Below, piece by piece: positions 1,679 to 28,502 of a stretch of DNA of 54,242 nt. Origin of the DNA: a virus (Duplodnaviria; Caudoviricetes); IMG/VR virus record IMGVR_UViG_3300045837_000080, positions 1 through 54,242 of that record, one strand, 5' to 3'. A program made the position numbers and the translations under genes. The notes below the pieces were generated by a model. That model had not been told where the DNA came from. It was given only the letters and a program-made list of their open reading frames with translations, and searched no databases. Position 1 is the stretch's first letter. Every line of letters starts with the position of its first letter.

Positions 1679-1684
1679 GTGAAG

Positions 1685-2027: not shown

Positions 2028-2034
2028 GCCCGTT

Positions 2035-2103: not shown

Positions 2104-2104
2104 C

Positions 2105-2260: not shown

Positions 2261-2283
2261 GAGAGCCAGGCGGTCCAGGTAAT

Positions 2284-2356
2284 GGCGCTGTGCTGAAATG
2301 GTTAACAGAGCCGCCTGCAAAGCGGTTATTTGGGAGTTCGAATCTCCCCAGCGTCT
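2284..2356 (+). tRNA. tRNA-Cys(GCA)
   Basis: Acceptor GGCGCTG/CAGCGTC, U discriminator, anticodon loop CT-GCA-AA, T loop AGTTCGAATCT. Confidence 0.95.
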
Positions 2357-2358
2357 CG

Positions 2359-7268: not shown

Positions 7269-7270
7269 GG

Positions 7271-10200
7271 TCAGCTCCACCACGAGGAAGGTTCGAAGTC
7301 ACAGGTGAGTACTACTTCCGCGATCTGGTCCGCCTGATCGCCGGTATCGGTGCGCCCGCCCCCGGAGATCCGGCGGGTCAGCTCGGTGACGCGGTAGGTG
7401 CTCACGTTCCCGCCCCCCCCGACCTGCCAGTCTTCCACGGTCACGATATCCCCGATGTTGACCCCGACGACGAATCCGAACGCGGGAGGGTAAGCCGCCG
7501 CGTCCACTTTCAGGTTCTCGATGCGCCGCTGCGGCTGCCCGAAATTACTGAACAGCCAGTTCGCCTGGGACTGCATCTCGGAGGTGGACTGGAGCCAGGA
7601 GGTGATCTGCAGCGGCTGCGCCCCGTGCCGGATCTGGCTCCTGTTCACCGCCGTGGCATTCTGCGGGGTGATCAGCGGCAGCTGCGCGCCGGTCGGGCTC
7701 ACCGGGGAGATGGTGATCACGTTGAACACCCGGTGCGGGTCGGTGATCCACTGGATCTCCTGGTAATAGGGGATCTTCCCGGCTGAGGGACCCAGCTGCC
7801 ATACCGGAGAGGAATACTGGCTGGCGAGATGGGTCTTCATCCAGTATGTCAGGTGATTGAGGTTGTCCACGTAGAGCAGCCCGGAATCGGACTGCGCCAT
7901 CGCCTGGATGGAGACGCTCACCTGCTGCCCGCCGCCTGCTGCTCCCGGAGCCTGGACGAGCAGCGGGGACTGGTCGATGCACCGGTTGGGGGACGCGCAG
8001 CGCCCTGCCCGCATCAGCCGCTCGATCCGCTCCCCGACCGAGTCGCCGATCGCCGTCGGGGACGCAGGATACGCCGAGCCGTCACCGCTCGCGGTATGGC
8101 ACACCCCGATCCCTGTTGCCGAGCCCCCGTACCCGCTGGAATAGGAGTCCCCGCTGCCGCACACCGTGGAGGCATTCAGGTCCGAGCCCACCTGGGAGGC
8201 GGTATAGATCCCGAACGAGGGAGCGAGCCCGAGGAAGCTGACGAACAGGTTCTCGGTGAACACGCTGGTCGAGGGGATATCCACCTGCGCGGACCCTGCC
8301 ACCCATGCCGACGGACCCGAGGTGATCCCGCCCGGGGCTTTCGCCACGACGATCGCCGAGGCTCCCACCCCGTTGATCGCCCCGAAGTTCGCCCCCGAGG
8401 TCCCGTCCGGAGCATACGCGGTCGAGGTGCCCCCCGATCCCGCGCTGGGGAACACCGGGGGCGTCCAGGTGATGGTCACCCCGGTCGGCGCCGGCAACTG
8501 CCCGAACGCAGTGATCGCCGCGAAATAATGATCCATGATCCGGTAGTAGGGCAGCGCGTACGGGTAGACGGCGAGGTGGCTGACCGAGACGTTGCCCCCG
8601 TGGGCGATGCCGCCCGTGCTCCCGCCGCCGCCGGAGCCCATGTCCGCGTTGGCGATCAGGTACGTCCATGCCGAGGTCATGCCCGTGGCGGTGCCCGACA
8701 CCTGGGCGGTCGCCCCCCCGTTCACGTACACGGTCCAGGCGGTCGTGGTCAGTGTCATGCTCACCATGAACCAGTTGTTCGAGCGAAGGTCCGACCCGCT
8801 GTAGATAACGTTACTGGTTCCCGTGCCCCCGTTGTAGGTGATCAGGTTCAGGTGCCCGGAATTGTCCAGCTGCAGGACTGCCACGGGCGCGGAATCGGTC
8901 GCCAGTTCGAGGACGGTCAGCGGGCACAGCGGCTGCTGCTGCACCGGGGCGGGAGCCCCGCCGCTCGGGGTGAGCGCCGTCCCGGACAGCCGGAACGGGT
9001 AATTGAACCAGCCTTCCACGGTGATCCCCCCGCTCAGCGGCGGGAAGCCCGTGTCACGGCAGGACAGGAACCACCCGTAGCTGCCCGTGGAACCCACCTG
9101 CCCGGAGGACTGCCAGGCTGCCGAGCCCGGAGTGGCGGTCACCGGGTTCCCGGATTCCAGGGCGGCAGGGCTGGTCTGCGGATCGCCGAACATCCACCCG
9201 GCAAGCGCCCCGGCAGTGTAGATCGCCATCGACGGCGGGATGAACTGGCTGCCCGACGCCCCGTTGGCATTGAGCACCGCCTGCGCCGCGCCGCCGTTCG
9301 GCGACAGCACGACACTGAGGGTGTTCACGTTCCCGATCGCGGCGTTGGCGAGCTGGGTGGGCAGCACGCCGGAGGTGCCCGGCTGGTCATCGCAGGGGAA
9401 CCAGGCGTACGGGGCGTCCTCGTACACCTCGCTGCGGTAGAACGTCGGGGGGGTGGAGGACAGCGCCGCCCACAGGTCGGTCCCGCTGACCGGGCAGTAC
9501 CGGCGGCGCACCTCGGTCAGCTGCTCGCCCCACTGGGTGGCGTTGCGCTGGATCACGTACCAGCGGTTGTAGGCGACCCCGCCGACCGTGCCCAGGGCGA
9601 ACCGGATGCGCACGGGCGTCCCCGAGGTGACCCTGCCCGTGGACACTACCGAAGACCCGGCGGTGAACGCCGCTTCCGCGACGTAGAAAGGCGCGGCGGA
9701 CGGCGTCCCGGACAACTGCAGGATCAGCGCGGTCTTGCCCGCGTTCGACGGGGACGTTCCCGTGACGCTCACCTGCGTCCACGTCCCGGCGGTCAGGGCG
9801 ACCGCAGAGCTGGTGGAGAAGGAGATGAACGCGCCGCCGGAGGTGTACCAGGCGAACGCCACCTGTGCCCCCGTGGCGTACCCGCCGGGAGAATAGAACC
9901 ACGCGGAGGCTGTGTAGGCGGTGCTCCCCGAGATGGTCACCTGCTCGGAGATCGCGCCGGGGAACGCGGTCACCCCGTCGGGGGTGACCTGCATGCTGTA
10001 CTTCGCCACGCCCGGGGGGGCGGAGGCGAACGCGAACGCCGTGGACTGGGCGATCGCCGCATTCCCGTTGCCCGCCCATGGGCTCGTCCCGGACTGGAAG
10101 CTCATGTTCGCGTTCAGGGCGTTCGAGTAATACGGTGACCCTACGTTGCTGGGCGATAGCGCCCCGTCATTGTTGTCCATCTCCATTTCCAGCTGCGTGG

Positions 10201-12352: not shown

Positions 12353-13042
12353 CTATTCTTTGAATCGTTGAAGATATTCAATAAGCCCCGCAAGTTTCCC
12401 GGGGTTGTCATCTACATGCCCTAGTGCTATGTTGCATCCTGGGCAGAGAAGTGCCCTGATCTTCCCGGACTTGTGGCAATGATCGGCATGGAGCGCCTTC
12501 CGGTAATCAGGCGGATCGAGCGGGTACCAGCTCCTGCATCCCGGGTTTGCGCATCTGCCTTCCTGTCGTGCCCACATCGCGTCGTATTCTTCAGGAGTGG
12601 TCCCGCGCTTTTTCAGGTTCGCGCGGCGCTGAAGGTATCTCGCACGCTCCGGGTTATTCCTGAGCCAGTTATTCCCGCTGTTGGCATCGGGGTGTGCCTT
12701 AATCCAGGCAGCGACGTAGCAGGAATGGCACAAGCCGTTACCGCCGTATCTGCGTCCTTCGTGACCGCAGATGAGGACGCCACTCGTATTGCGTGATGCA
12801 ATAGGGGGAGCCATCTCTTCTTCGGTTGCGCCCTTGGTGAAGCGCTCATAGTGGGGCTTGCAGTATCCCTTGGCGAAATGCCTGCGGCTACAGTTCTCCT
12901 GAGAGCAGTCTGGGCGGACATGGATCGGTTTTGCCATCTCCTCCGGGGTGGCTCCCCGCCTCATCCGAGCATAGTGGGCAGCGCAGTACCCTTTGGCGTC
13001 TACTGACCGGTCACAAGCATCTTGCGAACATGTATTCGGCAT
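12353..13042 (-). CDS. endonuclease VII-family homing endonuclease
   Basis: Two C-x4-C...KGYC..HY repeats; QEGRCANPGC, HADHCH..GKIRALLCPGCN. Confidence 0.9.
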   Translation of the reverse strand: MPNTCSQDACDRSVDAKGYCAAHYARMRRGATPEEMAKPIHVRPDCSQENCSRRHFAKGYCKPHYERFTKGATEEEMAPPIASRNTSGVLICGHEGRRYGGNGLCHSCYVAAWIKAHPDANSGNNWLRNNPERARYLQRRANLKKRGTTPEEYDAMWARQEGRCANPGCRSWYPLDPPDYRKALHADHCHKSGKIRALLCPGCNIALGHVDDNPGKLAGLIEYLQRFKE

Positions 13043-13689
13043 GAATTCATGATAACAAGATCACGCTGGACTAGCCAGTAATTCACCCGTAAATTGAGCC
13101 CATACACAATAAGTTGCCCGAGCGTGGCTGTATTCGAGGCGCTGCTCGTGGAGAACGTCACGGTCAGGTACAGCCACTGGTTGACCGAGAAGTCGATCGT
13201 CTGCAAGGCAGTGGGTCCGCCGAGGGTTTGCCCGCTAGATGCTGCAGGCTGCGTGGTAGAGCCATTGTTGAACCTGATGTCAATTGTCGAGGACAGGTTC
13301 GTGGACACCGAGGAAGTCCCGTAGCCCGCGCCGAAACAGGAGATGAGCAGCTCCCCGTGGAAGATGGAGCTGGCGAAGTTGGTCACCGTGACCGCATTGG
13401 CGGCAACCAGGGTGGAACCCGCCACGTTGTTCGGGGCGGTGTTCAGCCCGGCGGTGATGATCGCGGTGGTCGCCGACGCCTGTCCGCCGATGGTGATCGT
13501 GAACTCGGCTTTCGCTACCTGCCCCGTTCTTCCCTGCTGGAAGAACCCGCCCTGGAAGTAGGGCTGCTGGAATTTCCCGGAAGCCCCGGTGACCAGCGAC
13601 TGGGCGGACGTGGATGCCGCATTAGCCGTCGGGTAGGCGAACCCGTTGGCGAAGACGATCTCCGCCTGGGTGCCCTGGGTAAACGACAT
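13000..13689 (-). CDS. virion structural protein (Thr/Ser-rich beta protein)
   Basis: ATG coupled to the upstream stop; similar to 45262-45843; TTA codon after ...YGLN. Confidence 0.7.
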   Translation of the reverse strand: MSFTQGTQAEIVFANGFAYPTANAASTSAQSLVTGASGKFQQPYFQGGFFQQGRTGQVAKAEFTITIGGQASATTAIITAGLNTAPNNVAGSTLVAANAVTVTNFASSIFHGELLISCFGAGYGTSSVSTNLSSTIDIRFNNGSTTQPAASSGQTLGGPTALQTIDFSVNQWLYLTVTFSTSSASNTATLGQLIVYGLNLRVNYWLVQRDLVIMNSCRIHVRKMLVTGQ

Positions 13690-13874
13690 TACGCCGCCTC
13701 TCCGGAAAGGTGCGCGAACGCGGTGATCGTCACCGTGCGGTCGCAATCGGAATGGTCATGGTCCAGCGGGCAGCAGTCGCATCTGACCGCCTGGTCCAGG
13801 CGGCTGCCGTCATGGGTTTCCGCGCTCTTCCCGCAGGAATCGCAGCGGACGTGGAATGGCATGCGCTCAGGCAT
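13689..13874 (-). CDS. small Cys/His-rich protein
   Basis: GGAG RBS; CDSC..CDCC..H.H..C. Confidence 0.6.
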   Translation of the reverse strand: MPERMPFHVRCDSCGKSAETHDGSRLDQAVRCDCCPLDHDHSDCDRTVTITAFAHLSGEAA

Positions 13875-13900
13875 GGTAAAATCTCCCTAGAAAACGGGCG

Positions 13901-16900
13901 TCAGACCCCGCCGCCCTTGAGCTTCAGACCCGGCTTCCCGTCCCGCTTCGCCTTCTGGAGCAGCTTCTTCTGGATTTCCTGCACCAGCTGGTTGAGCTGC
14001 TGGGCGCTCAGCGAGGACAGGTCGCCCCCGCCTTTCATGCTGATGCTGATCGAGACGTTGTTGTTGATGAACGTCCCGCTCTTCAGGTTCGGGGCAAGGG
14101 TCCCGCCAAAGATGGCGCTCGCCCCCACCGCCCCCAGCTTGTTCGCGGCGGTGTTGATCTGCTTCCACAGGTTGTTGACCGCGCCCACCCCGCCGGGACC
14201 GCCCAGGATGGAGCTGGCGAGCAGGTGCCCCTGCCCGGGACCCGCCGCCAGCACCTGCTGGAGCACGTCCTTGTTCAGGTGCGCCTTGGACAGGTGGGTG
14301 ACATCGGCGCTGAACGTCTTGATCGAGTCCAGGTAGGACTTCATCTGCTGCTGCACCGACTGCGGCTGGGCGGCGGGAGGTCCGCTCAGCGCCGCGTTCG
14401 CCACCGCCGCGTTCCACGCCGCCAGGCTGAAGCCCCGTTGTCCCGGAGCCACGGCGCCCTGCCCGGTGCCGGCTGCCGTGGGGTCCGGGAGCTGCATCCC
14501 GCCCAGGTTCAGCCCCTGCACCGTCTGCTGGGAGAGGTTCTTGGCGAACGCGATCTCCTGCTGGATGTGGCTGACCATCTGCTGGGCGACCTTCGTCATC
14601 GCCGCCGCCGTGTCCTTCAGGTTCGCGGGCAGCTTGCCCACGACGGAGACGGTGACATCCTTCAGCGAGCCCGCCGCGCCCGCCGCGTGGTTCTTCAGCC
14701 GGTCCAGCGCTGCGTACAGCGGGTCCAGGGTGTTCTTCCAGAACGCGCTGATCTGCGCCGAGACGTTCATCCCGGCGTTCTTCTCCGCGTACAGCCGGTC
14801 CAGCAGCTTCCACGCCGCGCTGATCTCCGCCTTCAGCTCCGGGATCGTCGTGCCTGACGGCACGACCCCTCCGGCGGCGAAATGCGATGCCGAGGACTGG
14901 GGCATGCCGCCGAACCCGGGGATGTGGTGCGCGTTCAGGAACCCGGTGAGCTGCGGCACCAGGTACCGGGGGATGACCACCTCGCCCGGCTCCAGCATCG
15001 CCGGGACAATGTCCCCGATACCGGAGCCCGGCACCAGACCCCCGGTCTGCATGCCAGGTCCGGTGTGCCCGCCGAGGGCTGCCACCGTCCCCGACGAGCT
15101 GATCAGCCGGGACAGCCCCGGTGACCCGACCACCACGTAGTCCACGGTGACCGTCACCGTCTTGCCCTGCACCGAGTTGATCGCCGCCTTGACCGCGCCC
15201 ACTCCCTGCTGGACTGCCTTGACCACCACGGTCTTGCCCTGGATGGAATTGATCGCCGCCTTGGCGCCGGTCACCTGGGCGTCCACCTGGATCATGATCT
15301 TCTTCTGCATCCCGGCGGACACCCCGGCTGCCTGCAGGGCGTGCTGGATAATCGGTCCGATCGCCTGGGCGGTCACCCCCGCCTGCTTCATGGCACCCAC
15401 TACGCCCTGGATGCCCGAGGTGTCCACCTTGCCTTTCCCGGCGGCGCCCAGCACGCTGCTCATCGCTGAGGAGGCTTTCGAGATCTGGTCGGAGAAGATG
15501 GTGGCGTTGAACCCCATGGCGAACTGCTGGGCGATCTGCGGCAGCCGGGACAGGTTGACGGTCATCGTGTCCGTCGTCCTGTTCGCCTGCTTAGCGTTGT
15601 CGGCGATCTTCGCCGTCGCCTGGACGGCGGCTTGGTAGTTGGCAGCCTGGGACTTGCCCGGGTCGTAGTACGGGGTGACCCCCATCTGCGCGCCCTGCTG
15701 CATGATCGACGCCAGGGCTCCGGCTGACTGCTTGCCCAGCGGGAGCAGCTGCTGGATCTGGAAGCCCGCCAGCCCGGCTGCCTGCGGCTGGGTGAGCGCG
15801 CCCAGGGTGAGCGCGGTGCGCAGCTGGTCCAGGTTGGCTTGCTCGGAGGCGATCAGCCCCTGCGGTCCGGCGAACGTCCGCCACGCCGCCGCGCCGCCGG
15901 CGGAAGTGTAGGAGGTGAGCGCCTGCGCCATCTTCGCGAACGCCGGGGGAGCCTGGAGCTGCAATCCCGCGCGGGTCGGCTTAGTAGTCACCGGGGTGCC
16001 CCCGAGCATCGCGAACAGGTTCGCCATTCCCGACGGACCCCCGGTCATGATCGAGGTCATCGAGTCCATCGCCTTGTTGACATCGCCCAGGTTCTGCATG
16101 GCATGGGAGGACATGATGTTCTGCGCGGCGATCGCAGAGTTGAACGCGCCCGCGTTGCGGGTCATCGGACCGATCGCCGCCACGTAGTCGCCCAGCTGGG
16201 TGATCGCCTGCTGGGTCAGCTGCCCGTGCTTGTTGAATCCGTGCGTCAGGTCGAGCAGGGCGTTCTGCGCGATCTGGAAGACCTCCGACATGGACGCGCC
16301 CTGGATGCCCGCCTTGGCGAGCACGGATGCCAGCTGGGGTCCGGCGCGCATCAGGTTGCCCATCGTCGCGTCGAAACCCATCGCCGCCTGCGCCCAGTGG
16401 GACCGGGCGACCGTGGCAGCCATCGCCGGGGTTGTCATCCCGATGCCGCCGCCGCGCGCCGCCGCGATCTGCACGACCTGGAGACCTTCCGGGCTGAGCA
16501 CTGGTCCCGGAGCTGCGCCCGCTCCCGGGGCTGACAGCATGGTCGCCTTGGTGACCGCATGCCCGAGCGCCTGCCAGGTGGACACCGGGGCTCCCCCCGG
16601 ACCCGCGCCCGCGACGAATCCCATCTGCCCGATCTGCGCCTGCAAGGCGGCGATCGCCCGCTGATCAGGGGTTTTCGCGGTCATGATCTTGCCCGCGCCG
16701 AACGCCAGGATCGCCGCCGCCGCCACTTCCGGACCGGACAGCCCCCCGAGGATATCCGCGATGCTCAGCGCGCCGCGCCCGGCGGTCAGCAGCCCTTCCG
16801 CGCCCGTCCGCAAGCCCAGGTCGGCAAGCCTGCCGCCGATCCCGCCGATGCCTCGCCCGACCAGCCCGACCAGCGGGGTGCCCACTCGCATGCCCGCCTC

Positions 16901-18349
16901 GCCGGCGAGCGCCGCCCCGATCACGTTGCCCATGCCGTGGCTGCCCATGAACCGCAGCAGCCCGGCAGCCCCCCCGGTCAGCCCTTGCAGGACGGACAGG
17001 TAGTCCCCGCCCACCCCGGGAAGGTGGGGCGCCAGCCCGAGGAAGATGTTCCCGATGTTCGCCCCGATATCGCCGAACTGCTGCAGGTAGCCCGTGCCGC
17101 TGCCCATCAGCCCCGCCAGGATGCCCGCCGTCCCCCGCTGCGCCATGTTCAGCTGCATGGTGGCGACGCCCCGGTCCAGCATCCCGATCGTGTTCAGCCC
17201 CATCTGCAGGAACGGACCCTGGGTGGCTTTCGCCAGGTTGATCCCCGCGCCCGCCAGCTCGTAGACGCCCCCGGTCGCCAGGTCCTGGAAATTCTGCAGG
17301 CTCCTGCCCATGCCCAGGTACTGCCCGGCGGTGATCCCGTACGCGGGACCCAGGGACTCGGCTGTCGCCGAGATCGCCTGGAACCGCGACTGGATCTGCT
17401 CCACGCCCTGCCACCCGACCATGGCGGCAGCCCCGGCGGCTGCTACTGCCGGACCTGCCGTGGCGAGGATCTCGTTGGTCGCCATCATCGCCCAGTGCAC
17501 CGGACCCCACCAGCGCCGCACCCACCCGACGATCGCCTCAGCCTGCGCCCCGGCGCTCCCCTTCGGGAACGTGGCAGCCACGGCTGCCGTCCCCCCGCCT
17601 CCGCCGCCTCCGCCGCCTCCGCCGCCTGCACCCTGAGACAGGGCGGCAAGCACGGCGGCAGCAGATGCCCCGCCGCCTCCGCCGCCTTGCTGGCTGGCGC
17701 CCAGCGCGGAGCCGAGGGCGGCAGCGGCTGCCGCCTGCCCTGCCGCGTTCCCGCGTGCCCCGCGCAATCCGCTTGCAGCAGCGAGCGGGATGGCAGCGGC
17801 ATTTCCCGCGTTCGCGACATTCTGCAATGCCGATGCCAGCCTTTGCACGGAATTGATCGTCGCGTCCGATACGCGCACCCGGTTGCGCAGCCGGGAAACC
17901 GCGTCCAGTGCCGGCGTGGCACGAGTCCCCGCATCCGCCAGGTCATTCAGCAGGCGATGGACATCAGCCATCTTCGCCAGATCCCCGGGATCGGGTCCTT
18001 TTACCACGTACTTCACTGTCGCCGTCTTATCTTTCGCATCCGGAGGGCTTCCGGCGGTAACGTACTTCACGTTTACCGTCTGGACGGCGTCCTTGACCTG
18101 GGGGAGGTCACCTTCGGTGACATACCGGACAGCGACCTTGACTTCCCGGTCCCCGCCCAGCCCGTCCAGCTCGCGCTTGAGCCGTGCCACGTCGGCGATC
18201 GCCCGGTCCACGTCCGCCTTGAACGTGATCTTCACCACGTCCGGGATCGTCTTCAGTGACTCCTGGATCTTCTTGATCCCGTCCAGGTAGTCCCTGGTGT
18301 CCGCGCGGAACTTCTGGACGACGTCAGGCAAGCCGCCAGTGCGTGGCAT
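13901..18349 (-). CDS. tape measure protein
   Basis: 1482 aa Ala/Gly/Gln-rich helical protein; GGLVPG.G.GD.VPAMLEPGEVV motif; position after the chaperones. Confidence 0.88.
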   Translation of the reverse strand: MPRTGGLPDVVQKFRADTRDYLDGIKKIQESLKTIPDVVKITFKADVDRAIADVARLKRELDGLGGDREVKVAVRYVTEGDLPQVKDAVQTVNVKYVTAGSPPDAKDKTATVKYVVKGPDPGDLAKMADVHRLLNDLADAGTRATPALDAVSRLRNRVRVSDATINSVQRLASALQNVANAGNAAAIPLAAASGLRGARGNAAGQAAAAAALGSALGASQQGGGGGGASAAAVLAALSQGAGGGGGGGGGGGGTAAVAATFPKGSAGAQAEAIVGWVRRWWGPVHWAMMATNEILATAGPAVAAAGAAAMVGWQGVEQIQSRFQAISATAESLGPAYGITAGQYLGMGRSLQNFQDLATGGVYELAGAGINLAKATQGPFLQMGLNTIGMLDRGVATMQLNMAQRGTAGILAGLMGSGTGYLQQFGDIGANIGNIFLGLAPHLPGVGGDYLSVLQGLTGGAAGLLRFMGSHGMGNVIGAALAGEAGMRVGTPLVGLVGRGIGGIGGRLADLGLRTGAEGLLTAGRGALSIADILGGLSGPEVAAAAILAFGAGKIMTAKTPDQRAIAALQAQIGQMGFVAGAGPGGAPVSTWQALGHAVTKATMLSAPGAGAAPGPVLSPEGLQVVQIAAARGGGIGMTTPAMAATVARSHWAQAAMGFDATMGNLMRAGPQLASVLAKAGIQGASMSEVFQIAQNALLDLTHGFNKHGQLTQQAITQLGDYVAAIGPMTRNAGAFNSAIAAQNIMSSHAMQNLGDVNKAMDSMTSIMTGGPSGMANLFAMLGGTPVTTKPTRAGLQLQAPPAFAKMAQALTSYTSAGGAAAWRTFAGPQGLIASEQANLDQLRTALTLGALTQPQAAGLAGFQIQQLLPLGKQSAGALASIMQQGAQMGVTPYYDPGKSQAANYQAAVQATAKIADNAKQANRTTDTMTVNLSRLPQIAQQFAMGFNATIFSDQISKASSAMSSVLGAAGKGKVDTSGIQGVVGAMKQAGVTAQAIGPIIQHALQAAGVSAGMQKKIMIQVDAQVTGAKAAINSIQGKTVVVKAVQQGVGAVKAAINSVQGKTVTVTVDYVVVGSPGLSRLISSSGTVAALGGHTGPGMQTGGLVPGSGIGDIVPAMLEPGEVVIPRYLVPQLTGFLNAHHIPGFGGMPQSSASHFAAGGVVPSGTTIPELKAEISAAWKLLDRLYAEKNAGMNVSAQISAFWKNTLDPLYAALDRLKNHAAGAAGSLKDVTVSVVGKLPANLKDTAAAMTKVAQQMVSHIQQEIAFAKNLSQQTVQGLNLGGMQLPDPTAAGTGQGAVAPGQRGFSLAAWNAAVANAALSGPPAAQPQSVQQQMKSYLDSIKTFSADVTHLSKAHLNKDVLQQVLAAGPGQGHLLASSILGGPGGVGAVNNLWKQINTAANKLGAVGASAIFGGTLAPNLKSGTFINNNVSISISMKGGGDLSSLSAQQLNQLVQEIQKKLLQKAKRDGKPGLKLKGGGV

Positions 18350-18657
18350 CGTCCACCTCCGTCGCGGGTTACCAGGGATATGTTAAAATCAGGCGGCATC
18401 AGCTCACCCTTGCTGGGCTGATCTCAATCTGGGAAAGCCAGGACCGGAAGTGCTACAACTGCTTCCGCTTGCTGGCAGATCCCCGCCTTTCCCGTTACGG
18501 GGGCGGACAGAACACAGATGGAGGCTGGCGATCACGAATAGACCATGACCATTCGATCTGTCCCGATGCAAAGCATTCCTGCGAGCGCTGCAGGAGGGGG
18601 CTAACCTGTCACGGATGCAACGTGCACCGGTTGCCGTCGGGGAACTACGGATCGTAG
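18343..18657 (+). pseudogene. truncated endonuclease VII-like HNH
   Basis: QDRKCYNC..IDHDH..C..CERCRRGLTCHGCN; lacks a long N-terminal domain; antisense insertion. Confidence 0.6.
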
Positions 18658-19115
18658 GGGCGGAAGCCCTCGATCGCGGCACGGCGCAGCTCGCCGTCCC
18701 GGATCGCTTCTTCGGTGGTCGGGCGCAGGAACGGGTGCTCCGGGTGCGGCAGCGCCGTGTGGTACCACGAGCCGCCCGAATCCGTCCAGTGCACCATCTC
18801 CCCGTTCGCCGGCTCCTCCACCACGCACCCGTATTCCAGGATGCGGGCGTAGTCCACCCGGTTCCCGGCAACAGCCGAAGTTCCCAGCGCGCTGTAGAAC
18901 ATGCCGCGCGCCAGGTTCCCCGAGGCGTACGCCGGCGGGTCCCCGGGAGGCGTGCGGTGCCATGCGCCTTTCGCGTGCCGGGTGCGCCGCAAGGTGATGT
19001 TCGCTGCCCGCTCGGCGATGTATTTCGCCATCGCCAGGGACGCCGCAGCCTCGCCCCGGCGCGCCAGGGCGTAGATGTCACCCCACCAGTCGCTCGCACC
19101 CGACGGGCTGCTCAC
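18645..19115 (-). CDS. HK97 gp10-like tail completion protein
   Basis: PGDPPA..SGNL, YARILEYG, HPFLRP motifs. Confidence 0.75.
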   Translation of the reverse strand: MSSPSGASDWWGDIYALARRGEAAASLAMAKYIAERAANITLRRTRHAKGAWHRTPPGDPPAYASGNLARGMFYSALGTSAVAGNRVDYARILEYGCVVEEPANGEMVHWTDSGGSWYHTALPHPEHPFLRPTTEEAIRDGELRRAAIEGFRPYDP

Positions 19116-20259
19116 ATGGCTTTGCCCTGCACGCGGTTCAGCAGCTCCCCGATCGCCGGAGCCATATATTCCTCCGCGACGAAATCCTTGTCGTAGCCGA
19201 GGGCGAACTCGCGCAGGTCAGCCCGGAGCTTATCGTCGGGGCGCTCCTTGTAGCTGCGCTCGTACGCCATGACCAGCTCCCCCAGGTCCGGGCGCGTCCA
19301 CCAGCCCTTGTGCACCCCGTTATAGAACGGGGTCCCGTCCACTGAGATGCCCAGCGGGTTCAGCTCCGGCATCGAGGAGGCGTCAGTGGTGATCACCGGG
19401 GTGCCGCATGCCTGCGCCTCGATGATCGGCAGCCCGAATCCCTCGCCGAATGAGCACGCGGACAGCACGTCGATCGCGTTGTACCATTCAGCGATCTCCT
19501 CCGGGGTGATCAGCCCGCAATGGTAGTGATACTGGCTGACCACTTTCACCCGGTCGCTGATCCCCAGGTTCTCCGCGAGGGCTTCCAGGTCCTGCCCGCC
19601 CGCCTGGTGCACTCCCGAATGCAAGGCGAGCAGCGTGTCCGGGTGCCGGTCCAGGAACTTGGCGAACGCGAGCATCTGCTCGGGGATCGCCTTGCGGATC
19701 GCGTCATTGTTGGCGGCGTTCATCCCGATGACGAAATTGTCCCCGAACCCGAGCCGCTCCCGGATCTCCTCCCGGTTGCCCAGCGGGCGGAACACGTCAG
19801 TATCGATCCCGTGCGGCACGTAGACCGCGTCCAGCCCGGCATCGCGGTACCGTTCCAGCCCGAACACGGACATGGCGATCACCTGCATGCCCGCTGCCTC
19901 GATGACGTTCCGGTCGGCAGTCGAAGACGGGCGGCAGTCGCACGGCAGCCAGTGCGCGACCGGCAGCTGGCGCAGGACATTCGGGTCCATCACCCACACG
20001 TCGCCCAGGTTGATCACCAGGTCCGGGCGCACGTACTTGGCATGATCGCCGAGGGAGTCCGAGCAGTAGTTCTGCCCGTACCCGGGGAGCACGGTGATCC
20101 CGTTCCACGTTGTCGGGGAGCCGCTCAGCCCGTAATAGGAGCTGACCACCACCTCGTGCCCCATCTCGGTCAGCTTGCGCACCCAGGTTGCCGTCTGGGT
20201 CCCGTACCCGCTAAACTGGGGGACCACGGGGCACAGCTGTGCCACATAATCCTTGCCAT
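19112..20259 (-). CDS. GT4-family glycosyltransferase, 5' end split by a 5-nt TTA-containing gap
   Basis: AGGAGG RBS + ATG 20259 gives MARIMWHSCAPWSPS; the other frame continues GYGTQ...; PHGIDT, RK, EGFGLPIIEAQACGTPVI motifs. Confidence 0.9.
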
Positions 20260-20272
20260 TCAGCACCACCTC

Positions 20273-20536
20273 CTATCCGTATTGCAGCATCTCCTGCTTG
20301 CGGCTCATCAGCCGTTCCTCGGTGATATCCCAGGCTGCCTGGATGACCGGCAGCCAGAAAAGCTCATCGAGGGAGAGTTCATCAACCTCTCGCGGGGTGA
20401 GACCTCTCCCTCTCATGAACCGGTAGTACTCCAGCATGTGCTCCGGGAAGCCCTCGGGATAAGGGGGCTGCCGGGCGGGATTGCCCCCGCCCTGCTGGTA
20501 GGTGAAGATTTCCGCTAGTCTCCCGATGGCTTTTTT
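20273..20536 (-). CDS. tail assembly chaperone -1 frameshift extension (gpGT-like)
   Basis: Slippery CCA-AAA-AAG (+ strand 20530-20538); the -1 frame is open to TAG at 20273 (...LTPREVDELSLDELFWLP...). Confidence 0.8.
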   Translation of the reverse strand, partial: KKAIGRLAEIFTYQQGGGNPARQPPYPEGFPEHMLEYYRFMRGRGLTPREVDELSLDELFWLPVIQAAWDITEERLMSRKQEMLQYG

Positions 20537-20889
20537 GGGTCCGGCAGGTCACGCCCGGAAATCTTGTCCATCAGCGGCTCGACTGCCTTCTCCACGGCTG
20601 CGTAATCGTCCAGGTCCAGTGCGCTGCCGATGACCACGTCCGCCGCCTGGAAGTGATTCTGCGAGGGGATGGGCACCGGGAAGCTCCATGCGGTGATGAT
20701 CCTGCCCAGCAGGGCGTTGCGCATGTCGTTCGCCATCGCGTAGAAATTGGCTTTGCTCTTGCCTTCCCCGGTGACGTCGATGCTGGCGACCTCCTGGACG
20801 GCGAACCGGTCCAGGGACATCAGGCGATCCCGGATGTCCACCCAGTTGTGCTCGCCGTCAGCTTTCAGGCTGGGCAGCTCAATGCGCAT
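20515..20889 (-). CDS. tail assembly chaperone (gpG-like)
   Basis: Follows the tail tube gene; ends ...DPKK at a slippery site; AAGGA RBS. Confidence 0.8.
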   Translation of the reverse strand: MRIELPSLKADGEHNWVDIRDRLMSLDRFAVQEVASIDVTGEGKSKANFYAMANDMRNALLGRIITAWSFPVPIPSQNHFQAADVVIGSALDLDDYAAVEKAVEPLMDKISGRDLPDPKKPSGD

Positions 20890-20909
20890 GCGCGGTTCCT
20901 TGCTTGTAG

Positions 20910-20938
20910 TGGACAATCAATAGTCCGTAAAGTACCAT
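20910..20938 (+). promoter_or_regulatory. sigma70-type promoter for leaderless HNH gene
   Basis: TGGACA-17-TACCAT, 7 nt before ATG 20946; no RBS. Confidence 0.6.
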
Positions 20939-20945
20939 TTACTTC

Positions 20946-21563
20946 ATGGAGAACTGGAAACCCGTCATCGGGTTTGAATTCTTCTATTCTGTATCCATTT
21001 CAGGACAGGTACGAAGCCTACGCCAAAGCAAGATCATGCGACCAAGCACCAGTAATACCGGCGGGTACCCGATGTATGTCTTCACCGTGCAAGGCAAGCG
21101 CACAGGGAAGTATGCACATCAGATGGTCATGGAGGCATTTGTCGGTCCATGCCCGGAAGGCATGGAAGTCCGTCACCTAGATGGTGATGCGAGCAACCCT
21201 GCATTGTTCTCCCCGTCTGGGGAGAGAAGGCTGGCATGGGGCACGAAAAGTGAGAATAACTTTGATGAGGTTCGTCACGGTACCCATTATGAAGCTTCAC
21301 GTACTCACTGTGAGAACGGTCATGAGTGGACAAAGGAAAACACCCGGATCGAACGTTACCCAGATGGAACCTTTAAAGCTCGCCGCTGTCGGGAATGCAA
21401 GCGACTGGATGCTGCACGCCTAAGATCTCAGCGTAAGACTGATATCCGCCGCTGCAAAGAACCTGATTGCGGGAAACCGTACTTCGGACGTAATTGGTGT
21501 TCTATGCACTATGCCCGCTGGTACACGAAACAGAAAAAACTCACAGCAAGTGAAGCTGCTTAG
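20946..21563 (+). CDS. NUMOD4/HNH homing endonuclease
   Basis: ENWKPVIGFE.FYSVS..GQVRS, HQMV.EAF.GP, VRHLDG, WGT.SEN, THC.NGH. Confidence 0.92.
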   Translation: MENWKPVIGFEFFYSVSISGQVRSLRQSKIMRPSTSNTGGYPMYVFTVQGKRTGKYAHQMVMEAFVGPCPEGMEVRHLDGDASNPALFSPSGERRLAWGTKSENNFDEVRHGTHYEASRTHCENGHEWTKENTRIERYPDGTFKARRCRECKRLDAARLRSQRKTDIRRCKEPDCGKPYFGRNWCSMHYARWYTKQKKLTASEAA

Positions 21564-22965
21564 CGAAGATTCCCTCGTTCACCATCCACCCTGTGGCGGT
21601 GTAAACTGCGGTGCCGTTGGTCAAGGTCAGAGTGCCTGGACCGAGCCCCCCGGAGCCGCCGAAATCTGTACTATTAGCAACTGCCTCGAACGAGTTGCTG
21701 TACCCGATCAGCGCCTTGTTGCGCATGATCTTGCTCTTGATGTTCGCCACCTGAGACCCGGTGAACGTCAGGGTGAACGGGGTACCCGAGTTGGGAATCC
21801 CGTTGTTGGTCATGGTGATCTGCATGGGACCCTGCGCGTTCATCAGCATCAGGTCCAGCGGGGTCTCGGTGTTGGCGGGGTCCCACTGGATCGTCCCGTC
21901 CATCGTCAGCGGACCCCGCGCGATCACGAACGGGGACTGCAGACCCTGGACGGTCCAGTACACCTGGGTGGCGCGCTTGAAGCTGATGCTGAACTCGCCG
22001 ATCCCCGACCAGACCCCGGTGCTGCTCACCGTGTTCCCGAGGATGACCACGGTCGAGTTCCAGTTCGGGATCGGGCGGCTGTTCGTCGTGGTGTTCGTCA
22101 CCGGGGCGGTGGCGACCGTGGACTGCCAGGAGTCGCCTTGCATCCGGATGTTGAGCAGCTGCTCGGCGTTCCCGGAGAAGTCGAACGACCGCAGCACCGC
22201 GCTCGGGTACTGCCGCGCCCCGTAGGTGTTGGTCGGGGCAGTGCCGTACGTGGCGTGGGTCATCACGTTGACGATGTTGGTCGTGTCCGTGAACGTATGC
22301 GTGGGCGGCTGCGCCCCGTAAGCGCCGCCGTAGCCGAGCGCGGAGTTGAGCGCGGCGAACCGGTGGGTGAACTGGGTGCCCGTGCACAGGTTGGCGATCG
22401 TGCTCCCGGTGACCGCCGTGCCGTTGATCGAGGACGGGTGGGCGAACCGCAGCGGGGTGTTGATGAAGTTGACGATGTTCGATGCTGCTGTCGAAGAGAT
22501 CTGGATGACCTCGTTGACGTACGACGGCACCGTGCCCGTCGCGTACGTGCCCAGCTGGATGTACGCGCCTGCGGTGTATGCCGCCGGCGGGGCAGCCGAC
22601 AGGGTGAACTGGGTCGCCCCGACCGCCGCCGTCCCCGAGATGGTCGCCGGGGTGGTCACTGCGCTGCACGTGGTCGACAGATCACCGAACACGTTGTCGA
22701 AAAAGTACCCGTGGCTGTCCAGGTAATTGGGACCGCCGAAGCTGAACGTCGCGGACTCGACACCGAGCGTCTTGTAGAACAGGTCGGTCATCGAGCCCCT
22801 GATGCCCTTGTCATCGAGGAACTTCGGAGTGTCCTCCGGCTCGAACTGCGCCTGCTCCAGCGGGTGGGTGATCACCGGGTTGACCACTGTGCCGACGGTC
22901 AGCTCGCGGGCAATCCCCAGCCAGGACAACACCCCCGGATAAATGTTCGGCCCTCCGAGTGCCAC
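21541..22965 (-). CDS. major tail (tube) protein
   Basis: LGIARE..G, F..D.G.RGS N-terminal pattern; lies between the terminator and chaperone genes. Confidence 0.78.
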   Translation of the reverse strand: MALGGPNIYPGVLSWLGIARELTVGTVVNPVITHPLEQAQFEPEDTPKFLDDKGIRGSMTDLFYKTLGVESATFSFGGPNYLDSHGYFFDNVFGDLSTTCSAVTTPATISGTAAVGATQFTLSAAPPAAYTAGAYIQLGTYATGTVPSYVNEVIQISSTAASNIVNFINTPLRFAHPSSINGTAVTGSTIANLCTGTQFTHRFAALNSALGYGGAYGAQPPTHTFTDTTNIVNVMTHATYGTAPTNTYGARQYPSAVLRSFDFSGNAEQLLNIRMQGDSWQSTVATAPVTNTTTNSRPIPNWNSTVVILGNTVSSTGVWSGIGEFSISFKRATQVYWTVQGLQSPFVIARGPLTMDGTIQWDPANTETPLDLMLMNAQGPMQITMTNNGIPNSGTPFTLTFTGSQVANIKSKIMRNKALIGYSNSFEAVANSTDFGGSGGLGPGTLTLTNGTAVYTATGWMVNEGIFAKQLHLL

Positions 22966-22978
22966 ACGTTCCTTCCTC

Positions 22979-23007
22979 TGGACCTAACTCCAGAATGGCG
23001 TTATAAT
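22979..23007 (+). promoter_or_regulatory. sigma70-type promoter for leaderless HNH gene
   Basis: TGGACC-17-TATAAT, 6 nt before GTG 23014. Confidence 0.65.
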
Positions 23008-23013
23008 TTCCCT

Positions 23014-23544
23014 GTGAGAGAAACCTGGAGACCCGTTCCTTTCGGCAGGGTCTACGAAGTGAGTGATTACGGGCGTCTCCGCAACGCGAAGACAGGAAAA
23101 TTCCTCACAGGAACCATCAATGAAGACGGGTACTGCAGGGTTTATCTATCCGACGGCAACCTTCATAAGAGCTTCTATCTGCACGTACTTGTCGCCAGGG
23201 TTTTCCTTGGTCCTCGCCCCGCAGGACAGCAGGTCAGGCACTGGGACGGGAACCCGCTCAACAACAGGATTACTAACCTGCTGTACGGCACTCCCTCCGA
23301 GAACGTTCGCGACACTGTCCGGTACGGAAATCACGTACAGGCTCGGAAGACTCACTGTCCTGACGGTCACCCGTACGACAAGGAGAACACCTATGTCTTC
23401 CCGGACGGGCGCAGGCACTGCAAGACCTGCCGACGTAAAGCGTTTCAGCGCCATGACGAGAAACGCAGGAGGATCACTGTCAACGGGAAGCGCATCTGGA
23501 TTCCCGTTGACGAATCGCTATGCGCGGAAAATCTCCCACAATGA
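23014..23544 (+). CDS. NUMOD4/HNH homing endonuclease
   Basis: ETWRPVP..YEVSDYGRLR, HVLVARVFLG, VRHWDGNPLNN.I.NL.YGT.SEN, KTHCPDGHPY. Confidence 0.92.
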   Translation: MRETWRPVPFGRVYEVSDYGRLRNAKTGKFLTGTINEDGYCRVYLSDGNLHKSFYLHVLVARVFLGPRPAGQQVRHWDGNPLNNRITNLLYGTPSENVRDTVRYGNHVQARKTHCPDGHPYDKENTYVFPDGRRHCKTCRRKAFQRHDEKRRRITVNGKRIWIPVDESLCAENLPQ

Positions 23545-24033
23545 CAGCTTGACCAGACAGTCGTACCGTTTCGTGCGCTCGTCAGCCGTGGACACGATCC
23601 CCGTCTGGTAGTGCATGTCCTCGCCCGCGTTGTAGATGTCCGAGACCAGCCCCGAATTAGGGTCGGCGAACGTCGCCGGGTTGGGCATGGAAAACCGCAG
23701 CGCGTACATGACCGCGTCCACCATCCCCGGGAACACCGGGTCCTGGGCTTTCCCCGCGTCCGCCGAGAACCAGGTCAGGTACACGTCCATCCGGTGCAGG
23801 ATTCCCTTGGTGCCCGAGGACGTGCCCGGTCCGGTATTGCGGGGGATCGTCCCGCCCAGCTCCTCAGAGCGGTTCTCCTCCCCGTCCGCCGGCCAGATGA
23901 GGATCTGCGGGACCTTCCCCTGGACGTTCGGGTCCTGCGGGGTGATCCACGCCCTGGCATTCGGCTTCCCGTACGGCATGGGAAGGTCATCGAGGATGCT
24001 CAAAAGGAAAGCCTGCACGGTCACCAGGGGCAA
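23518..24033 (-). CDS. tail terminator-like protein
   Basis: Position just before the tail tube; GGAGG RBS + TTG. Confidence 0.6.
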   Translation of the reverse strand: MPLVTVQAFLLSILDDLPMPYGKPNARAWITPQDPNVQGKVPQILIWPADGEENRSEELGGTIPRNTGPGTSSGTKGILHRMDVYLTWFSADAGKAQDPVFPGMVDAVMYALRFSMPNPATFADPNSGLVSDIYNAGEDMHYQTGIVSTADERTKRYDCLVKLSLWEIFRA

Positions 24034-24086
24034 CGCAGGAACCTCCCTGCTGCAATTTTACCGGTAAAAGGCTGCAGCGCAAGTGC

Positions 24087-24227
24087 CTATGCTTTCTGCG
24101 CCTTTTCTGCTTTCTGCGCCCGGGGGGAGACGGGAGCGCCGGATGATGATCTCGGCTGCGCGATGATCCCGCCGCGCTGGCGCCTCATGATGACCCGGCG
24201 CATCGCCTGCGCCCGCCTGCGGTTCAT
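24087..24227 (-). CDS. small basic protein (46 aa)
   Basis: AGGAG RBS + ATG; Arg-rich. Confidence 0.45.
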   Translation of the reverse strand: MNRRRAQAMRRVIMRRQRGGIIAQPRSSSGAPVSPRAQKAEKAQKA

Positions 24228-24234
24228 GGCGCTC

Positions 24235-25231
24235 CTAAATGGTCCTGCGGAACGGGTGGATGAGAAGCTCCGCCTCGGAGTTGAGCCCTTCGATGTCCCC
24301 GCCCGTGTGCTGGGAATGACCCCCGATGTCATGGATGGTCGTGGTGGTCGCGCCCCGGGTGAGGGCTTCGGCGACGCAGAACAGGATGCACGCCTGCTCC
24401 ACGGTCGCGGGCAGCGTGGTGACCAGCGTCCCGGGGGCGTGCGGGTAGACCAGGTTCGATGACAGGGTGAGCGTCCCCGGACCGGCGGTCGCGCTCGCCG
24501 AGGTGACGTGCACGGTCTCCTGCTGCCCGGAGTCCTTGATCACCCCGGTCGCCCCGGTCACCCCCTGGTAGCTGGTGATCCCCCAGCCGGTGCAGTCATC
24601 GACGGTCAGCGTGTTCGTCCCGGAGGATGCCTGGGCGGTGATCTCCGCGTGCGGGAACCCGTTGATGTAAGAGATCATGCAGATCCACCCGTTGCGCCCC
24701 ATCGACCAGTCGATGTACCCGGGTCCGATCAGCACCACCTGGGAGCCGTAAGCCTCCGAGCTGGGGCTGGATGACCCGTAGATCCCGATCGGGGGGTACT
24801 CGGGCTCCGCCCATCCGGCAGGCAGGGTGGTGAACTTGCGCGGGAACACGTTGTTCGCGCACACCTGCACCTGGGTGACCTGCAAGATGGGAAACCGGGA
24901 CATGACAGCGCGGGCGTTGAAGCTGGGGGTGTCGTTGAACCAGAACGAGTTGCTGACCCCGCCGCCGCCCGCCGGTCCCACGGTCAGCCGGAAGTCCGGT
25001 CCGTGCAGCACCTCGGTGTCCACGGTCGCCCGCAGCACCTGGTTGCAGTACCCGTTGACTTTCGCGGTGGCGCGCTGGCACATGTTCCACCATTCGGCTT
25101 CGTTCTGCGCCGGGGTGACATCGCCGCCGATAGGAATGGATGTCCAGTCCTAAATCGATCCCCGTGGGCGCCGTGGTCAGCGTCACAGGGCTGATATAAG
25201 GAGCACCCGCCGTAGGCATCGGGGTTGTCAT
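24235..25231 (-). CDS. head-tail connector/adaptor-like protein, 5' end split by a 7-nt TTA-containing gap
   Basis: GGAGG RBS + ATG 25231 gives ...PYISPVTLTTAPTGID; the other frame continues WTSIP...RATAKVNGYCNQVLRAT...VEQACIL...AELLIHPFRR. Confidence 0.8.
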
Positions 25232-25250
25232 GGGACATCACCTCCCGTCC

Positions 25251-25457
25251 TCATGCCGCTTTCCTGCTTTTTCTCAGGCAGGAATGACATACATAGCCGC
25301 CGCGTCCCTCGTCTTCCTCGGACAGCCAGTCCGAGTGCCTCGGGTAGCAGACCATCTCATTGCACCGGGCGCACTGACCGGACGGCGCGGCTGTGCGGGC
25401 ATTGCGCGCCCTTCTCGGACCCCCGCAGTACCTGCACAGCCCAGCCGCCCTGCTCAT
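25251..25457 (-). CDS. small Cys-rich zinc-finger-like protein
   Basis: CRYC, CARC, CHSC. Confidence 0.6.
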   Translation of the reverse strand: MSRAAGLCRYCGGPRRARNARTAAPSGQCARCNEMVCYPRHSDWLSEEDEGRGGYVCHSCLRKSRKAA

Positions 25458-25463
25458 GCGTTC

Positions 25464-26165
25464 CTAAGTTGCCAGCCTGGTGATCATGGCGTCTTTGGTG
25501 CCCTTGTCCGTCAGACCCCGCTCGCGGCACATCTTGCGCAGCGTGGAGACATGCAGGGTGCCCAGCGGCAGCGGGTTCAGCGGCGCGTCCTCCTCGGTCA
25601 CGTCCGGGGCTTCCCCCAGCTGCGCCTGGGCGCTCATCCTGATCCCGCAGGTGCTGCAGAACCCGGCTCCCGCCACGTTGTCGTGCCCGTTGGCGCACAC
25701 CGTGGTGCCCTTGATGATCCGGGGATCGAACGTCTGCTGGAGCAGCCACATCGCGTTGTCCGGGATGGAGATGCCGGCGGACTTGGCGGCGATCAGCGCC
25801 TGGAGCTGCTGAAGCTCCTGGGCTCCCCGCTCCGCGCGGATCTTGTTGACGTGCTGCTCATCGGGCGTCGGCGGGATGCCCTCGGGGGTGCTCGACCAGT
25901 GCGGGTCAGCGTCGGCGACATGCTCCATCCGGGACGGGATGCCCTGTTCCCGGTCGCCGGGGATCACCTTGATGATCTTCGGCTTGTGGTCGCCGCGCAG
26001 GTAGGACTCGCAGCCGGCGCGCCCGTCAGGCTGCGGACCGCAGTCCAGCTTCCATACTTTCGCCGGGCTGCCGTGGGTCACCGGACGCACATGCGTGGCT
26101 CCGCAGCCTCCCGAGGTCTCGGGGATCGAGACGGACATCAGGTCCGACCTCGCGTAGAGCGAAAT
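25464..26165 (-). CDS. virion-module protein with zinc ribbon and C-terminal SAP-like domain
   Basis: CANGH..FCSTCG; LHVSTLRKMCRERGL..KGTK..MITRL (SAP-like); start ATT 26165 or GTG 26174. Confidence 0.65.
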   Translation of the reverse strand: MSLYARSDLMSVSIPETSGGCGATHVRPVTHGSPAKVWKLDCGPQPDGRAGCESYLRGDHKPKIIKVIPGDREQGIPSRMEHVADADPHWSSTPEGIPPTPDEQHVNKIRAERGAQELQQLQALIAAKSAGISIPDNAMWLLQQTFDPRIIKGTTVCANGHDNVAGAGFCSTCGIRMSAQAQLGEAPDVTEEDAPLNPLPLGTLHVSTLRKMCRERGLTDKGTKDAMITRLAT

Positions 26166-27809: not shown

Positions 27810-28502
27810 CTAGAACTTAGTGAAAAGCCACTGCAGATCCGGGCTGAACATCCGGCGGAGCAAGGAGACCTGGCCGGACATGCGCTGCGCCCGCCAGCGG
27901 GTGAACTCAGCGAAATCAGGATCGCCGTCCGCCTGCTCCGCCCGGCTGTACGTCTCATCCCGCACCGCGCCGGGCGTCACCGAGTAATGCTCGTGGCGGA
28001 TGACCGCGCGGGGGCAGAACCGCATCAGCCCCGAGCGCTTGCCCAGCTCCGCCCACACGTTGTCGATGTAGAAGTGCCGGAAGCCCGGCTCGGCGAACCA
28101 GCCGAGCACCGTGATCACGTCACTGGACATGAGCACGTGCTCGGGGACGTCATAACGCCGCTTGTCATCGGGGTAGACGATCCCCGTCCCGCCTAGCGCG
28201 TCCAGCGTCCCCATCATGAGCAGGTCCCACCCGGGGGTGACGAACACCTGGTCATCGGCAGCCAGCATGAGCGCCCGGTACCGGGGCGCGAGCTTAAGGG
28301 CGGCGTCGTTGATCGCGGTGACCAGCGAGTCGCGCTCCACGGTCATCACGTCGGCGCCGATGCCCGCATAGGAAACATCGTCATCGTCGATGACCAGCAC
28401 CAGGTCCACTTCGCCCAGGGCGGTCTCCCGGAACGAGGCGATGCACTTTTCTGCCAGCTCCCGGCGCTTCCTGGTCGGGATGAACACGCACAGCTCGCTC
28501 AT
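27810..28502 (-). CDS. GT2/GT-A-fold glycosyltransferase
   Basis: VFIPTRKR, VIDDDD, AADD (DxD-like), HFYIDN motifs. Confidence 0.85.
   Translation of the reverse strand: MSELCVFIPTRKRRELAEKCIASFRETALGEVDLVLVIDDDDVSYAGIGADVMTVERDSLVTAINDAALKLAPRYRALMLAADDQVFVTPGWDLLMMGTLDALGGTGIVYPDDKRRYDVPEHVLMSSDVITVLGWFAEPGFRHFYIDNVWAELGKRSGLMRFCPRAVIRHEHYSVTPGAVRDETYSRAEQADGDPDFAEFTRWRAQRMSGQVSLLRRMFSPDLQWLFTKF

Follow-up and report, generated by a model that had tools for sequence, protein, structure and literature searches.

How can two genes of a virion module yield intact proteins when each is broken near its start by a few bases that begin with TTA? The question is raised by the viral record IMGVR_UViG_3300045837_000080 (IMG/VR), a linear DNA of 54,242 bases with an estimated completeness of 40%, all of which was analysed and is called the window below. 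One interruption lies in a glycosyltransferase gene (site 1) and the other in a head-completion-like gene (site 2); a third TTA stands at the expected end of another gene of the module (site 3). The three TTA sites and the genes of the stretch that contains them are all on the minus strand. A preliminary description of this DNA had proposed ribosomal bypassing at sites 1 and 2, in which the ribosome leaves a take-off codon in front of TTA and resumes on a matching landing triplet a few nucleotides (nt) downstream. Our analysis leads to a similar view, and we consider it likely that ribosomes hop over both interruptions, which would be short coding gaps left untranslated (translational bypassing). 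The gaps exist, are conserved and under constraint, recur independently and are always led by TTA, and their removal restores conserved protein sequence. That ribosomes are responsible, how efficiently they hop and whether the host level of tRNA-Leu(UAA) exerts control are matters of inference.

The window is matched by contigs from soil and rhizosphere metagenome runs, and its positions were compared with the assembled contigs of these runs (labelled X). Five related viral records were fetched whole (G001-G005), and further related loci are labelled L. At site 1, the following elements were assigned in the glycosyltransferase gene.

20269-20274, minus strand: Shine-Dalgarno sequence AGGAGG, 9 nt upstream of ATG 20259
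20215-20259, minus strand: coding segment 1, MARIMWHSCAPWSPS, with AGT (20217-20215) as last codon and candidate take-off codon
20210-20214, minus strand: coding gap 1, TTAGC, 5 nt, the last bases of which form the candidate landing triplet AGC
19112-20209, minus strand: coding segment 2, GYGTQ... to the stop codon, GT4 family (phrog_2170, 3e-30; PF00534, 5e-14)

The bases are thus arranged as AGT[TTAGC]GGG TAC GGG, and those after the gap are in the frame of a 385-amino acid (aa) open reading frame (ORF). Segment 1 is identical to the homologue from G002 in 13 of 15 residues, and the genes of G001, G003, G004 and L043-L049, which are devoid of the 5 nt, read MAR[IL].WHSC.PW..SGYGTQ in one frame. 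An unbroken 385-aa ORF starting at GTG 20269 was considered and rejected because the homologues show the other frame to be coding upstream of the gap; this GTG overlaps the AGGAGG sequence, and the start with correct spacing, ATG 20259, belongs to the other frame. Decoding of UUA at site 1 would end the glycosyltransferase frame 13 codons later. Gaps were found in four of the 14 glycosyltransferase copies examined: the window and G005 carry the identical 5-nt gap, G002 a 9-nt gap in frame (AGT[TTAAAATGC]GGA) and L050 a 6-nt gap in frame (CCT[TTACCC]AGC). Independent same-sample support for site 1 is weak, with a contig piece (X5) that covers <31 letters on one side.

At site 2, the head-completion-like gene shows the same architecture with a different gap.

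25154-25231, minus strand: coding segment 1, 26 codons, MTTPMP...APTGID, with GAT (25156-25154) as last codon and candidate take-off codon
25147-25153, minus strand: coding gap 2, TTAGGAC, 7 nt, with GAC as candidate landing triplet and a +1-frame TAG that overlaps TTA
24235-25146, minus strand: coding segment 2, WTSIPIGGD... to the stop codon, with TGG ACA TCC.. in the frame of ORF 24235-25149

A GGGAGG sequence lies 9 nt before ATG 25231, and the frame that starts there reads MTTPMPTAGAPYISPVTLTTAPTGID. The frame of the long ORF 24235-25149 is closed upstream by the TAG within the gap, and decoding of UUA would result in the rest of the gene being read out of frame. Uninterrupted homologues read APTGIDW..IP. 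Among 12 related loci compared first, six were uninterrupted (APTGIDW) and six were interrupted, in all cases by TTA-led sequences. The identical 7-nt gap was present in L002/L074, L011/L086, L089 and also in G005. Segment 1 of the window differs from that of L002 by 13 synonymous versus four nonsynonymous codon differences (26 codons) and, judged from its codons, is under purifying selection; the 7-nt gap itself is unchanged in the window, L002 and L011 despite these 13 synonymous differences upstream (window versus L002). The site-2 protein gave no match to Pfam, PHROG or PDB profiles, and its AlphaFold model (mean pLDDT 56) gave no Foldseek match in the PDB at E ≤ 0.001; the head-completion label is a lead only, taken from Atlas leads to PF24163 (HCP) and PF05135.

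One explanation would be that the two genes are pseudogenes or that the gaps are assembly or sequencing indels. The window is a metagenome assembly, and the X3 and X7 run contigs, which derive from a near-identical strain with few substitutions, miss one base at 25148, giving a 6-nt in-frame gap (GAT[TTAGGC]TGG) with the frame restored. The missing base does not mark the 7-nt form as an error; diverged contigs from other samples share it. The same gaps were found in independent, diverged contigs (5-nt and 7-nt gaps in G005, the 7-nt gap in G001/L002 and L089), both coding segments are under purifying selection, and every break is led by TTA, which makes an origin by error or gene decay highly improbable. 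The interruptions noted initially are real in that related contigs either lack exactly the 5 or 7 nt or carry other TTA-led gaps at nearly the same place, which is what the alignment of homologues proposed in the preliminary description was meant to check.

The occurrence of such gaps was then surveyed in the related phages. A codon-blind tblastn scan of six genomes for neighbouring matches that differ in frame returned TTA-associated breaks only, plus one doubtful patch at 50626-50651 that is treated further below. A TTA-centred read-through search recovered both window sites and two more broken genes. One is the G001 homologue of window ORF 37211-38092 with TAC[TTAAC]ATC; the homologues in the window, G002, G003 and L051-L057 are uninterrupted. 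The other is a gene of G004 without a copy in the window, with TAT[TTAA]GAC (G004 50426). Scans for TTA frame switches based on the G+C content at third codon positions (GC3) missed both true sites and yielded mostly gene borders and antisense frames.

The largest set of gaps was obtained with the site-2 gene. A profile scan identified 65 loci, six of which lacked the N-terminal part, leaving 59 assessable loci; several of these are identical copies from different samples and do not represent 59 independent genomes. A gap was present in 17 of the 59 loci, always within the first ~27 codons and always TTA-led, and the remaining 42 were contiguous. The window is an 18th gap-bearing copy outside the 65 loci. 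The site-2 gaps comprise at least 14 different sequences and are located after five different codons of the motif PY|VTP...APT|G|I|D|W. In the gene tree, gap-bearing and gap-free copies are interleaved, and the close sisters L108 and L099 carry different gaps; gaps therefore appear to have been gained and lost often.

Taking all genes together, 19 distinct gaps of 4-16 nt were found in four genes, all of them TTA-led, and both in the two window gaps and in all 19 distinct gaps UUA directly follows the final codon of the upstream segment. In 13 of the 19 gaps, the last triplet agreed at positions 2-3 with the codon that precedes TTA, with position 3 scored as purine or pyrimidine. When the triplet was shifted by -2, -1, +1 or +2 nt, the number of matches dropped to 0, 1, 1 and 2 of 19, respectively, and when landing triplets were permuted among the events in 200,000 rounds, none reached 13. 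Seven gaps were of the fully synonymous type (six NNT → NNC, one ATA → ATA). The take-off codon ended with T in 13 of 19 cases, though third-position G+C is ~0.8-0.9 in these genes. The pattern NNT-TTA...NNC, recognized initially from AGT/AGC and GAT/GAC in the window, thus recurs in the wider gap set.

This match bears on the possibility that the mRNA loses the gaps before it is translated, through editing or through cleavage and ligation. Agreement between the codon before the gap and its last triplet is expected for re-pairing of a tRNA, not for splicing, and the gaps share nothing beyond TTA, at lengths from 4 to 16 nt. Systems for removal from mRNA are not known to act on inserts of this size. 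We regard this explanation as very unlikely.

A further alternative is programmed frameshifting (+1, +2 or -1) on a hungry UUA or beside it, in which case the remaining gap bases would be translated into extra residues. Hungry codons promote frameshifting, and with gap lengths modulo 3 of 0, 1 and 2 in 4, 10 and 5 of the 19 gaps, a net +1 shift would be needed in 10 of them. The shortest gaps have 4 nt and follow TAT (TAT[TTAA] in two unrelated genes, TAT[TTAC] in one case; L087, L108 and G004 50426), and these cannot be distinguished by their sequence from UUA decoding followed by a +1 shift. On the other hand, each of the three length classes is represented, landing triplet and take-off codon match, and the extra residues would be placed inside a near-invariant motif. 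In 12 of the 19 gaps a +1-frame TAA or TAG overlaps TTA, and a simple slip by +1 at UUA would meet this stop codon. An in-frame TGA is present in two of the in-frame gaps, namely ACA[TTATGAGAGACC]GGC in L092 (12 nt) and ACA[TTAGGGGCCTGAGCT]GGC in L099 (15 nt); neither ordinary decoding nor a single frameshift reads through them, but a hop can. The gap set as a whole does not follow the pattern of a single-step frameshift in which all other bases are translated. Frameshifting is an improbable explanation, and the preference of the preliminary description for bypassing is borne out by the TGA-containing gaps, the +1-frame stops and the spread of length classes. The two stop-containing in-frame gaps argue for bypassing from sequence alone.

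The course of bypassing may be envisaged as follows. The ribosome would arrive at AGU or GAU with UUA as the next codon, which is nearly unused by these phages and for which there is no phage tRNA. With an empty A site, the peptidyl-tRNA could release the NNU codon, to which it is bound by a weak G:U wobble pair. The mRNA would slide by 5 or 7 nt, and the tRNA would re-pair with the synonymous NNC triplet that closes the gap (AGC or GAC). Decoding would then restart at the next codon and give ...APWSPS-GYGTQ... and ...APTGID-WTSIP..., and these junction peptides, predicted already in the preliminary description, agree with the uninterrupted homologues (APW..SGYGTQ and APTGIDW..IP). Since decoding of UUA would give truncated or out-of-frame products, formation of functional protein should depend on bypassing.

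Several observations weigh against bypassing or limit the data on which it is based. Six of the 19 gaps show no match at positions 2-3 (ACA..ATT, GAT..GGC, ACA..ACC, ACA..GCT and TAT..TAA twice). The stop-free in-frame gaps of L050 (6 nt) and of the G002 glycosyltransferase gene (9 nt) and the X3/X7 variant GAT[TTAGGC]TGG (6 nt) could be plainly translated. No significant or shared RNA structure was found: the z-scores of nine gap-bearing 100-nt windows ranged from -1.75 to +1.39, and those of five gap-free controls from -1.24 to +0.12. No consistent internal Shine-Dalgarno sequence was seen when checked by eye. Alignments were inspected by eye to place the gap borders, the ORF models are crude, and the site-2 tree (FastTree, midpoint-rooted) has no support values. 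Finally, the crude ORF models of G004 show no depletion of TTA (20 versus 20.5 expected).

In the window itself, TTA is rare. Only five in-frame TTA codons were counted among 15,122 codons in 52 crude ORF models, versus 27.8 expected from positional base composition; the gap TTAs are excluded from this count, and the short first segments are absent from the ORF models. One of the five is at site 3, one in an antisense artefact ORF (12289+), and the other three are in short ORFs of doubtful status. The large virion ORFs (portal fusion, 939-aa, 645-aa, terminase, 1494-aa and 1580-aa) contain none, in agreement with a manual scan in the preliminary description that had noted no in-frame TTA in the major virion genes. 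A TTA census over all GC3-filtered ORFs was uninformative because antisense ORFs dominate.

The tRNA genes of the window are clustered at its left end.

34-2357, plus strand: five phage tRNA genes (Arg-ACG, Val-CAC, His-GTG, Tyr-GTA, Cys-GCA), the truncated end of a larger array

None of the five is a tRNA-Leu(UAA) gene, and none was found in G003 (41 tRNAs) or G001 (35 tRNAs), though Leu-CAA, Leu-GAG and Leu-CAG are present there. Other rare codons that end in A do have readers in the arrays of G003 and G001 (Ile-TAT, Arg-TCT and Lys-TTT). The complete genome G002 has gaps and zero tRNA genes. The tRNA arrays fit with UUA being left undecoded by the phage and are silent on the host tRNA pool. 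Apart from this, ARAGORN predicted a tRNA with a four-base anticodon (tagg) at L028 341-416, corresponding to G003 20341-20416, between two tRNA-Pro genes; it sits in the 41-gene array, and G001 has no gene at that place. A SpoU-type RNA methylase gene (1115-1678, plus strand) is located beside the tRNA genes of the window.

If UUA is the trigger of bypassing, the recurrent gaps may have a regulatory role. The preliminary description suggested a Streptomyces-like host and a bldA setting, in which functional protein would be formed only when tRNA-Leu(UAA) is scarce; both the host type and this regulation are suppositions. It is possible, though we hold this view tentatively, that the repeated, independent UUA-led gaps in this uncultured soil phage clade act as a tunable translational sensor through which virion completion and glycosylation follow the tRNA-Leu(UAA) state of the host, and that they provide a natural mutational series for short-range bypassing. 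If the link to tRNA-Leu(UAA) is true, phages would read the physiological state of the host via translation. The stop-free in-frame gaps (6 and 9 nt, and the 6-nt strain variant) weigh against such an inverse sensor, since they would give full-length protein with or without TTA decoding. The designation of the switch as genome-wide was overstated, as the window has two gaps and one TTA that replaces a stop codon.

Bypassing might also operate without any sensor. In this case, the host would never decode UUA efficiently, and the gaps would be fixed attenuators of yield or near-neutral, tolerated insertions; such constitutive bypassing is conceivable, and we would not assume it by default. The in-frame gaps and the 7-nt/6-nt polymorphism between near-identical strains suggest drift of gap length, and the phage tRNA arrays omit Leu-UAA. 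However, no fewer than 14 distinct gaps recur in the first ~27 codons of a single gene and change even among close relatives, which suggests selection for a gap at this place. Such selection does not separate an attenuator from a sensor.

Bypassing at UUA has a precedent, and the mention in the preliminary description of TTA-linked bypassing proposed for Streptomyces phages was correct. According to Antonov et al. (2023, RNA Biol, PMC10732093), UUA-mediated bypassing of two 10-nt blocks was proposed for the terminase gene of phage phiHau3 by Smith et al. 2013 (as cited there), and UUA blocks occur in only three of 100 terminase genes, those of Streptomyces phage phiHau3, the StrepC.1 prophage and an S. 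catenulae prophage. In the same text, a contiguous phiHau3 terminase product is reported in S. coelicolor, and a junction peptide is reported in E. coli with UUA replaced by UAA. UUA-triggered bypassing rested on these four sites in three terminase genes and was, according to its authors, largely overlooked; low-level bypassing at slow or unassigned codons is also cited (PMC10732093). Full-text literature searches returned no report of such gaps in phage genes other than terminase, and PMC10732093 covers terminase only, as far as its retrieved text goes.

Direct inspection of the phiHau3 record gave GGC[TTACTCCGGT]AAG and TCT[TTAACGGTCC]ACG, both gaps having 10 nt and pairing GGC with GGT and TCT with TCC as take-off and landing triplets. 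The gaps described here share with phiHau3 the UUA directly after the take-off codon, a short gap closed by a triplet that is a synonym of the take-off codon, restoration of a conserved motif upon gap removal and, as judged from the crude ORF models of the window, a phage that otherwise avoids TTA. They differ in affecting a glycosyltransferase gene, a head-completion-like gene and two other genes rather than terminase, in having lengths of 4-16 nt, some in frame with internal stops, versus 10 nt in both phiHau3 gaps, and in their frequency (17 of 59 loci in one gene versus three of 100 terminase genes). The phages are also uncultured, with genomes of about 115-130 kb, some of which contain 35-41 tRNA genes. 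Assignment of the window gaps to UUA-triggered short translational bypassing of the phiHau3 type, as a large extension of a known, little-studied kind, is well supported by their sequence features.

Similarities to other systems are more limited. Bypassing in T4 gene 60 likewise involves matched take-off and landing codons, detachment and re-pairing of the peptidyl-tRNA, and one protein made from two coding segments. It has, however, a 50-nt gap, a stop codon directly after the take-off codon, a take-off stem-loop and a nascent-peptide signal, whereas the gaps here have 4-16 nt, the rare sense codon UUA after the take-off codon and no significant structure, so that they are not of the T4 type. 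Bypassing in laboratory constructs with hungry or unassigned codons and the mitochondrial byp elements of yeast share the empty A site followed by a slide to a nearby cognate triplet, and minimal pairing can suffice. The laboratory examples are either artificial or inefficient, and the gaps of the byp elements have 27-55 nt; the gaps described here are natural, conserved and recurrent in phage genes. Control by bldA in Streptomyces shares the rare UUA as control point. There, the tRNA reads UUA as Leu and is required for expression, whereas here the functional product should need UUA not to be decoded.

Natural translational bypassing is very rare, and the window and its relatives add 19 distinct gaps in four other genes. 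The gap set leads to testable rules for take-off codon, landing triplet and hop length, which would be, if true, NNU take-off, NNC landing, hops of 4-16 nt and tolerance of stops inside the gap. Standard gene callers will mis-annotate gap-bearing genes as truncated or split.

At site 3, the TTA is not part of a gap.

13090-13092, minus strand: in-frame TTA at the stop-codon position of homologues, with AAT TTA at 13095-13090

The ORF 13000-13689 reads ...LIVYGLN and then TTA, and all three homologues found end with ..N followed by TAA or TAG at exactly this codon, consistent with the earlier remark that a third TTA sits at the expected end of a gene. If decoded, the TTA would add 30 further codons up to TAG 13000-13002. 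The read-through frame overlaps the start of the HNH/endonuclease VII gene; G002 has no such gene there. The simplest account would be a TAA-to-TTA change resulting in a 30-residue extension or in a stall at the natural end.

The genes named above are arranged along the minus strand of the window (G+C 58-71%) in the following order.

48034-49716, minus strand: terminase, first in the minus-strand gene order
38043-42575, minus strand: 1511-aa fusion with portal, MuF-like and Nudix parts, after the terminase; next come large virion ORFs and then a sugar-modification set (epimerase/dehydratase, C-methyltransferase, glycosyltransferases)
24235-25231, minus strand: site-2 gene, head-completion-like, after the sugar-modification set
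20515-20916 and 20273-20548, minus strand: ORF pair joined by a canonical -1 slippery site, between the site-2 gene and the GT4 glycosyltransferase gene
19112-20259, minus strand: GT4 glycosyltransferase gene (site 1), followed by the 1494-aa ORF
13000-13689, minus strand: site-3 gene, a virion-module ORF of unknown family, after the 1494-aa ORF
12353-13042, minus strand: HNH/endonuclease VII gene (PF02945, 3e-19), immediately following the site-3 ORF, in DNA of lower G+C

A megablast search with 13000-25500 gave no match to a cultured phage. With tblastn, the site-2 protein, terminase and portal gave only distant matches (≤36% identity) from which no host could be named, and a scan of bacterial genome contigs gave no prophage relatives of the site-2 gene.

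The sugar epimerase/dehydratase gene, the C-methyltransferase gene and three glycosyltransferase-like genes are dispersed in the virion module (27810-30993, 6537-7298 and 19112-20259, all minus strand), and this scattering suggests glycosylated virion proteins. The ORF pair that adjoins the glycosyltransferase gene on its upstream side has the layout usual for phage tail assembly chaperones. Its A_AAA_AAG heptamer (20530-20536, minus strand) is in phase near the end of the 133-aa ORF 20515-20916, and a -1 shift there would add ~80 codons up to TAG 20273-20275.

The doubtful patch of the codon-blind scan, a frame transition at 50626-50651, was rejected as a break because it resembles non-coding DNA that is conserved and contains a 9-bp hairpin. 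The surrounding segment 50626-50680 (minus strand), conserved with G003, contains the perfect 9-bp hairpin GGACCAGGG...CCCTGGTCC upstream of ORF 49818-50690 and probably serves as a regulatory element or terminator, not as coding sequence. At the contig end, a gene on the minus strand (53061-54242) encodes a protein with a TROVE (Ro-like) domain.

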